NCBI GenBank assembly: GCA_015233145.1
Contig: JADFYI010000001.1
Coordinates: 143,345 to 207,344 of the forward strand
Length of the DNA: 64,000 nt
From: Candidatus Omnitrophota bacterium
GTDB lineage: Bacteria > Omnitrophota > Gorgyraeia > Zapsychrales > Fredricksoniimonadaceae
Direction: 5' to 3'
The position numbers and the translations under genes were made by a program. Shown piece after piece: positions 29,451-29,992 of this stretch. The notes below the pieces were generated by a model. The model was not told the origin of the DNA, did no database searches, and was given only the letters and a program-made list of their open reading frames with translations. Each line of letters starts with the position of its first letter. The first letter of the stretch is position 1.

Positions 29451-29478
29451 TTGACATCTTTAGGAATATTAGTATAAT
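29451..29478 (+). promoter_or_regulatory. Consensus sigma70-type promoter for tRNA-Asn
   Basis: TTGACA, 16 nt, TATAAT, both hexamers perfect. It lies about 65 nt upstream of the tRNA 5-prime end. Confidence 0.55.
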
Positions 29479-29545: not shown

Positions 29546-29836
29546 TCCCCTGTAGCTCAGTTGGTAGAGCATGTGGCTGTTAAAGTTAGCAGCCTCCGGC
29601 AGAAACGCTGGAGTGACAAGCGGGCTAAGTCAGGGAAATCCCCGTCTTTTTTGGGACAATCCTGAGCTAGCAAGCCTTACTAGAAATAGAAGGCTGGGCA
29701 AGTGCAGAGACTTTACACCCGCCGCCTAAAACCAATCAAATCACTTTTGGTCATGGCGAAGAGAAAGTCCGACTCTTCAGGCAACTGAAGTCAGAAAGTA
29801 ACCACAGGGTCCTAGGTTCGAGCCCTAGCGGGGGAG
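29546..29836 (+). tRNA. tRNA-Asn (anticodon GUU) interrupted by a group I intron
   Basis: Exon 1 (29546-29580) is TCCCCTG-TA-GCTC-AGTTGGTA-GAGC-A-TGTGG-CTGT. Exon 2 (29799-29836) is TAA-CCACA-GGGTC-CTAGG-TTCGAGC-CCTAG-CGGGGGA-G. Joined, they give a perfect 73-nt cloverleaf with anticodon loop CTGTTAA. Confidence 0.82.
29581..29798 (+). ncRNA. Group I intron (small, IC3-like, no ORF) in the tRNA-Asn anticodon loop
   Basis: P1: exon GGCUGU pairs with intron GCAGCC (29589-29594), giving a U.G wobble at the splice site. The intron ends in G (omega-G). GCAGAGACUUUACACCC and GAAGAGAAAGUCC resemble the conserved P7/J8-7 core (Tetrahymena CAGACUAAAU / AAGAUAUAGUC; Azoarcus UAGAGACUA...CACCCACCUAAGG). 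UCAGGGAAAUCC forms a P4/J4-5-like segment. The terminal hairpin CTTCAG-GCAA-CTGAAG has a GNRA loop. Confidence 0.78.
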
Positions 29837-29845
29837 TTTATTTAG

Positions 29846-29880
29846 AAAGCCCATTCATTAATTTGGATGGGCTTTTTTAT
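29846..29880 (+). terminator. Rho-independent terminator after tRNA-Asn
   Basis: AAAGCCCAT...ATGGGCTTTTTTATTTT hairpin followed by a T-run. Confidence 0.6.
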
Positions 29881-29992
29881 TTTCTAAGAAAACTCTCCCG
29901 TTAAGGCTAAAAAGTGGGTAAACTAAATAAAAAATTAGAGAAATCAGCTTGTTCGATCGTGTCATCAAAACTCAAAATTCAGGGGGCATGGG

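Follow-up and report, generated by a model that had tools for sequence, protein, structure and literature searches.

The tRNA-Asn locus

The window, a 64-kb stretch of one contig (JADFYI010000001.1, assembly GCA_015233145.1) from a Candidatus Omnitrophota bacterium, encodes a tRNA-Asn(GUU) gene that is interrupted within its anticodon. The gene lies downstream of valS, a tex-like gene, dnaX, and recR, and is followed by cydA and cydB. A first, sequence-only reading of this DNA had described two tRNA halves, 218 nt apart, that join into a 73-nt cloverleaf. ARAGORN calls the joined exons tRNA-Asn(gtt), and the gap between them spans 29581-29798 (Table 1). The joined tRNA has a U1-A72 acceptor end followed by G73. 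The window ValS is 100% identical to an NCBI MAG protein of Candidatus Omnitrophica bacterium; its next relatives are 72-77% identical, and the named ones nearly all come from Omnitrophica or Omnitrophota.

The same reading had credited the gene with its own consensus promoter (TTGACA-16-TATAAT) and terminator, and both are present. The promoter scores 12/12 in a consensus scan, and the terminator hairpin runs into a T run. An equivalent TTGACA...TATAAT arrangement stands upstream of the orthologous tRNA-Asn genes at two related loci, L121 and L123, and an equivalent terminator hairpin follows the gene at both. A 3' CCA is absent from the window gene, in which GGGGGAG is followed by TTTATT (29836-29840); at both related loci GGGGGAGCCA is encoded and the CCA is present (L121 18236-18239; L123 18686-18688).

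Table 1. Features of the interrupted tRNA-Asn gene, in window coordinates
Feature	Coordinates	Strand	Description
Sigma-70-type promoter	29451-29478	+	TTGACA 29451-29456, 16-nt spacer, TATAAT 29473-29478; consensus scan 12/12
5' exon of tRNA-Asn(GUU)	29546-29580	+	35 nt, tRNA positions 1-35, last bases G34 U35; ARAGORN on joined exons; TCCCCTGTAGCTCAGTTGGTAGAGCATGTGGCTGT
P1	29575-29594	+	Exon GGCUGU 29575-29580 with guide GCAGCC 29589-29594; U35.G29589 at the 5' splice site
Group I intron	29581-29798	+	218 nt, ORF-less, terminal G29798; Rfam match and covariation
Candidate P10	29585-29588 with 29799-29802	+	GUUA with UAAC at the start of the 3' exon; complementarity read from the sequence
P2 hairpin	29595-29613	+	Loop contains GAAA 29602-29605; 6/6 pairs with compensatory changes
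P3 5' strand	29620-29624	+	GCGGG, partner 29718-29722; compensatory changes in 4/5 pairs
P4 enclosing P5	29630-29665	+	P4 29630-29635/29660-29665, P5 29639-29641/29654-29656; RNAalifold; 4/6 P4 pairs compensatory
P6 and P6a/b hairpin	29666-29703	+	P6 29666-29668/29701-29703, alignment-supported; GAAA cap 29683-29686
P7 5' strand, J7/3, P3 3' strand	29707-29722	+	GAGACU 29707-29712 (A29708 bulged), UUUACA, CCCGC 29718-29722; Rfam alignment and coordinate mapping
P8 hairpin	29723-29758	+	CCUAAA 29725-29730 and CAUGG 29752-29756; outer and inner pairs covary
J8/7 and P7 3' strand	29759-29770	+	AAGAGAA, then AGUCC 29766-29770; agrees with the Rfam core consensus
P9 hairpin and tail	29775-29798	+	29775-29780/29785-29790, GCAA loop 29781-29784, tail UCAGAAAG, G29798; 5/6 pairs compensatory
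3' exon of tRNA-Asn	29799-29836	+	38 nt, tRNA positions 36-73, U36 to discriminator G73; no encoded CCA; TAACCACAGGGTCCTAGGTTCGAGCCCTAGCGGGGGAG
Intrinsic terminator	29844-29884	+	Hairpin 29844-29877, then T run

Intron identity and anatomy

The insertion is a group I intron. Rfam model RF00028 (Intron_gpI) matches 29571-29791 on the + strand over its full length (model positions 1-253) with 70.0 bits and E=1e-15, against a gathering score of 50 bits. The predicted fold of the intron beats that of shuffled sequence (z=-4.17), and none of 200 shuffles is as good. The longest intron ORF, of 52 aa, enters from the exon and none is meaningful, in keeping with the proposal of an ORF-less intron. The other anatomical proposals of the sequence-only reading also hold: G29798 ends the intron, P9 bears a GCAA cap that matches the predicted GNRA-capped terminal hairpin, and both putative catalytic-core strings (P7 and J8/7) are found. 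Between AGUCC and the terminal G there are 28 nt in eight of the nine matching family sequences, the window included, and 29 nt in the ninth; a tenth family sequence did not fit the pattern used for this comparison.

The 5' splice site lies in a 6-bp P1 that places U29580 (U35) opposite G29589, the U.G wobble that had been claimed. GUUA, immediately 5' of the guide GCAGCC, is complementary to the four nucleotides that open the 3' exon, and therefore the guide would align both exons, one through P1 and the other through a candidate P10.

In the alignment of 16 sequences described below, the AAA of L2 is invariant and the preceding G almost so, and the G-AA of L9 is invariant; in the window itself the GAAA of L2 is closed by an A.C mismatch. 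The CCUAAA/CAUGG of P8 resembles an 11-nt tetraloop receptor and may serve as one, and one relative (L131) bears the canonical CCUAAG...UAUGG in P8. The distal P6a/b hairpin comes from a single-sequence fold. Docking of L2 onto P8 and of L9 onto P5 is known from Azoarcus, and tetraloop-receptor contacts are typical of small IC3 introns. The combination of L2 and L9 GNRA loops with the P8 motif suggests contacts of this kind in the window intron.

Covariation support

The window and 15 relatives, drawn from metagenome loci and syntenic genomes, were aligned, and RNAalifold applied to these 16 sequences independently recovers the anticodon stem, P1, P2, P3, P4, P5, P6, P8, and P9. Once P7 is included as a pseudoknot, standard pairs account for 98.4% of cells, against 83% after column shuffling and 32-47% when the 3' partners are slid by one to three columns. 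Changes on both sides affect 27 of the 48 pairs, against 3-11 in the slid controls, and compensatory changes support P2, P3, P4, P5, P6, P8, and P9.

P1 and P7 pair in every sequence and never vary, and therefore carry no covariation support. For P1 this invariance, which extends to the U.G pair in 16/16 sequences, is neutral as to pairing. The invariance of P7 and J8/7 does not count as independent evidence because both belonged to the search patterns.

Splice junction

The DNA of the window permits a junction at either 35/36 or 36/37, because intron and 3' exon each start with T. Only the 35/36 junction combines U29580 opposite guide G29589 with the intron-terminal G29798, which agrees with the earlier claim of a single legal splice assignment. 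Insertion at 36/37 was rejected, as the intron would then end in U. A two-base shift to 33/34, often favored by annotation tools, reads the gene as tRNA-Thr(UGU) and would make the intron end in A; it was likewise rejected. At an intron-less ortholog in L123 the empty site reads GGCTGT/TAACC, which fixes the insertion point.

Standard annotation handles such genes poorly. ARAGORN recognizes the joined exons, but its default mode overlooks the interrupted gene of the window and likewise that of L121. Its intron mode gives an erroneous call, a tRNA-Stop(tta) split at 40/41 by an intron of 196 nt. Such genomes would therefore seem to lack tRNA-Asn, and their completeness would be underestimated.

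Synteny and the empty site

Homologs of ValS lead to three syntenic loci (L121, L122, and L123), and the order valS-tex-dnaX-recR-tRNA-Asn is kept in these relatives. In L121 (GCA_974330525.1) and L122 (GCA_020720365.1) a tRNA-Asn gene just after recR carries a group I intron at the same site; this intron scores 52.8 bits with the Rfam model and is 76% identical to that of the window. On L123, which is a JGI metagenome contig, the locus holds a tRNA-Asn(GTT) without interruption, flanked by the same promoter and terminator. The window 5' exon agrees with this ortholog except for compensatory stem changes, and several of the exon differences between the two genes are of this kind.

Because synteny is conserved with and without the intron, the window gene represents the usual tRNA-Asn locus of this lineage, in which relatives are polymorphic for the intron. 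Filled alleles in L121 (17928-18236) and the window (29546-29836) and the empty allele in L123 (18613-18688) form a natural pair, with ValS proteins about 75% identical. A single syntenic locus that occurs both with and without its intron offers a clean system for the study of intron gain and loss.

Distribution of the intron family

A degenerate pattern was built from published sequences together with that of the window. This pattern (CAGAGACT, gap, RANANAGTCC, gap, GTAAY..GG..GTTCRA) matches at least 120 loci in a collection of species-representative genomes. At least 105 of these loci parse as tRNA-Asn(GTT) split at 35/36, with introns of 212-604 nt. Fifteen unparsed loci were re-examined: 12 read ...CTGT/intron/TAA, and three have too little upstream sequence. 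Among the matches listed, which do not include the window's own genome, the hosts named in the records are Patescibacteria, Acidobacteriota, Nitrospirota, Cyanobacteria, Elusimicrobiota, Ignavibacteriota, Bacteroidota, Omnitrophota, Margulisiibacteriota, and others. The window intron is at most 68% identical in nucleotide sequence to any of the 105 genome-scan introns among those matches, and its P7-to-J8/7 distance is the shortest among the family members compared.

A second pattern, specific for the compact form, matches 104 metagenome contigs, 59 of which carry standard Asn genes split at 35/36. The closest metagenome introns are 74-79% identical to the window intron.

Several relatives carry a coding sequence within the intron. 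In L179, L180, L128, L157, L127, L162, L153, and L137 the introns are 495-604 nt long with an ORF of 78-122 aa. In relatives whose introns measure 500-600 nt the ORF is 98-122 aa long. It lies within the loop of P1, downstream of the 5' splice site and ahead of the guide, and its product has the motif CxxC..HH..CxxCH; matches to Pfam HNH models are weak and below threshold. These HNH-like ORFs in L1 would fit a homing-endonuclease origin of the presence/absence polymorphism of the intron, and the window copy is an ORF-less derivative or relative of the ORF-bearing introns. In six contigs (L127, L132, L138, L155, L210, and L224) an HNH-like ORF accompanies the compact intron, which there occupies 35/36 of a different tRNA-Asn(GUU) body, with a G1-C72 acceptor end and a D arm of GCTCAGTCCGGTTAGAGC. 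The presence of the compact intron in such divergent tRNA-Asn bodies suggests spread across distant hosts. A bacterial-family tRNA-Asn 35/36 intron also occurs on a 1963-bp contig (L066, CAYTFL010000170.1) binned as a Candidatus Woesearchaeota archaeon, which may be either a binning error or a cross-domain occurrence.

A further set of 34 metagenome contigs, comprising 26 distinct sequences and designated group B (L129, L134, L135, L139, L141, L174, L216, and 27 more; for example, L134 2346-2539 on the - strand), combines this compact intron with a body that resembles tRNA-Asn and whose stems are kept by compensatory changes; Rfam scores of the introns are 74-77 bits. The 5' exon lacks G34 U35: in place of ...GGCUGU it reads ...GGCU, then 0-4 variable nucleotides, GGU.A.., and GCAGCC. 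The nucleotide that follows GGCU covaries with the central one of the 3-nt spacer before GCAGCC (C/G, U/A, G/C), and an extended P10 can form between GGUNA and the 3' exon. In group B no standard combination of 5' and 3' splice sites gives back a GUU anticodon loop of 7 nt, and no other tRNA gene lies near the introns on these contigs. Several pairing schemes were considered for group B, among them a bulged P1, a Thr reading, and a tail-loop pairing, and none is consistent across all variants.

Proposed function and alternative explanations

It is highly probable that the chromosomal tRNA-Asn(GUU) gene of this Omnitrophota bacterium carries a 218-nt ORF-less group I ribozyme at 35/36 that belongs to a compact, IC3-like lineage. 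The sequence, the Rfam match, the covarying pairs, and the empty allele are direct observations, whereas splicing chemistry, tertiary contacts, and mobility history are inferred. In all likelihood the intron is functional and self-splicing. A precursor transcribed from the gene's own promoter would hold the ribozyme within its anticodon, between positions 35 and 36. The intron would fold into P1-P9, and the guide GUUA/GCAGCC would align the exons, with P1 pairing GGCUGU and presenting U35.G and P10 pairing UAAC. An external guanosine would then cut after U35. G29798 would next enter the P7 guanosine site, and exon ligation would restore the GUU anticodon loop.

The gene could instead be a pseudogene with a decaying, splicing-dead intron, the cell relying on another tRNA-Asn gene. 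The genomic view is that of the 64-kb window, in which the only other tRNA genes are tRNA-Thr, Tyr, Gly, and Pro and no second tRNA-Asn is found; the homing-endonuclease ORF of relatives is missing from this copy, and the closing pair of L2 is A.C. This explanation is nevertheless improbable. The two Patescibacteria genes picked for splicing assays each encode a tRNA for which the genome has no other gene (Nakagawa et al., mSystems 2026; bioRxiv 2025; PMC13011429), and the interrupted gene of the window stands at the syntenic tRNA-Asn locus of related genomes. Its 12/12 promoter and intact terminator are both conserved with orthologs. All tRNA stems and intron helices are intact, and the differences from relatives are compensatory, none of them disruptive.

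Slightly less probable still is a genuine intron that depends in vivo on a protein cofactor or chaperone and is not truly self-splicing. In its favor, many group I introns require maturases or chaperones, and the window copy is minimal, with peripheral contacts that are predicted. Against this, tetraloop and receptor-like motifs, usually enough for the self-sufficiency of small introns, are present, and protein-free self-splicing in vitro is known for compact bacterial tRNA introns of this type and for a homolog from this insertion site (PMC13011429).

A functional ribozyme at 35/36 thus remains the preferred reading. A more ambitious version of it would place the intron in a separate compact IC3-type lineage, derived by independent colonization of 35/36 or by loss of P7.1/7.2 from an IA intron, spread by HNH endonucleases, and residing in the sole tRNA-Asn gene of its host with an essential ribozyme; this version is speculative and, taken as a whole, rather doubtful.

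Comparison with known systems

The sequence-only reading had not counted tRNA-Asn(GUU) with an insertion at 35/36 among the classical hosts and sites, and the novelty this implied does not hold. Group I introns at position 35/36 of tRNA-Asn(GUU) are already described, with 28 cases among 4,934 complete genomes (Nakagawa et al., mSystems 2026; bioRxiv 2025; PMC13011429), and the genome scan reported here finds the combination in more than 100 species-level genomes. The hosts of the 28 are Patescibacteria (19), Cyanobacteriota (3), Nitrospirota (3), Bacillota_A (1), Bipolaricaulota (1), and Pseudomonadota (1), and 25 of the 28 introns are classed as IA (PMC13011429). Precise in vitro self-splicing at 35/36 is demonstrated for a homologous Saccharimonadia tRNA-Asn intron that has the P1 of the window intron (GGCUGU/GCAGCC), and changing its terminal G to C blocks ligation (PMC13011429). 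Confusion of tRNA-Asn 35/36 introns with tRNA-Thr at 33/34 by annotation tools is described in the same study (PMC13011429). The study also notes that tFind had listed the class earlier, as Asn.4Ug (PMC13011429). In the part of its table covered here, Omnitrophota is represented solely by a tRNA-fMet intron (PMC13011429). Host tRNA and site are thus a published combination, and the window intron represents no new kind of biology. What is new is modest: an Omnitrophota host and a compact, IC3-like variant within a recently described and very widespread tRNA-Asn intron family.

The window intron shares with the published Asn.4Ug family the host tRNA, the 35/36 site, and the P1 pairing of GGCUGU with GCAGCC, and it is alignable with the published sequences, including the assayed Saccharimonadia intron, in P2, P3, P4, P6, and P9. 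Some family members carry a homing-endonuclease ORF in L1, whereas the window copy has none. IA-labeled Asn introns have a hairpin of 20-30 nt (P7.1/7.2) between P7 and the 3' strand of P3, whereas the window intron has only UUUACA there, a difference in a subgroup trait that is no requirement of the family. The long P8 with its receptor-like CCUAAA/CAUGG also sets the window intron apart from the published Asn introns. Because the published family is mostly IA and the window intron lacks the IA hairpin, the in vitro result transfers to it only on the assumption that the shared core suffices.

The core of the window intron appears compact and IC3-like. In sequence it shows a P2, neither P5abc nor P7.1/7.2, and GNRA loops in L2 and L9 with putative receptors in P8 and P5, as in the IC3 subgroup. 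Its segment from P7 through the 3' strand of P3 and P8 to J8/7 resembles IC3-labeled tRNA-fMet introns, the IC3 likeness being one of sequence features. The IC3 introns of Azoarcus tRNA-Ile(CAU) and of cyanobacterial tRNA-Leu(UAA) as well as tRNA-fMet differ from it in host tRNA, in insertion site (33/34, 34/35, or 36/37, against 35/36 in the window), and in guide. They have in common with the window intron a P7 directly followed by the 3' strand of P3, a P8 with CCUAA...AUGG, the J8/7 consensus AAGAGAxAGUCC, and GNRA loops in L2 and L9.
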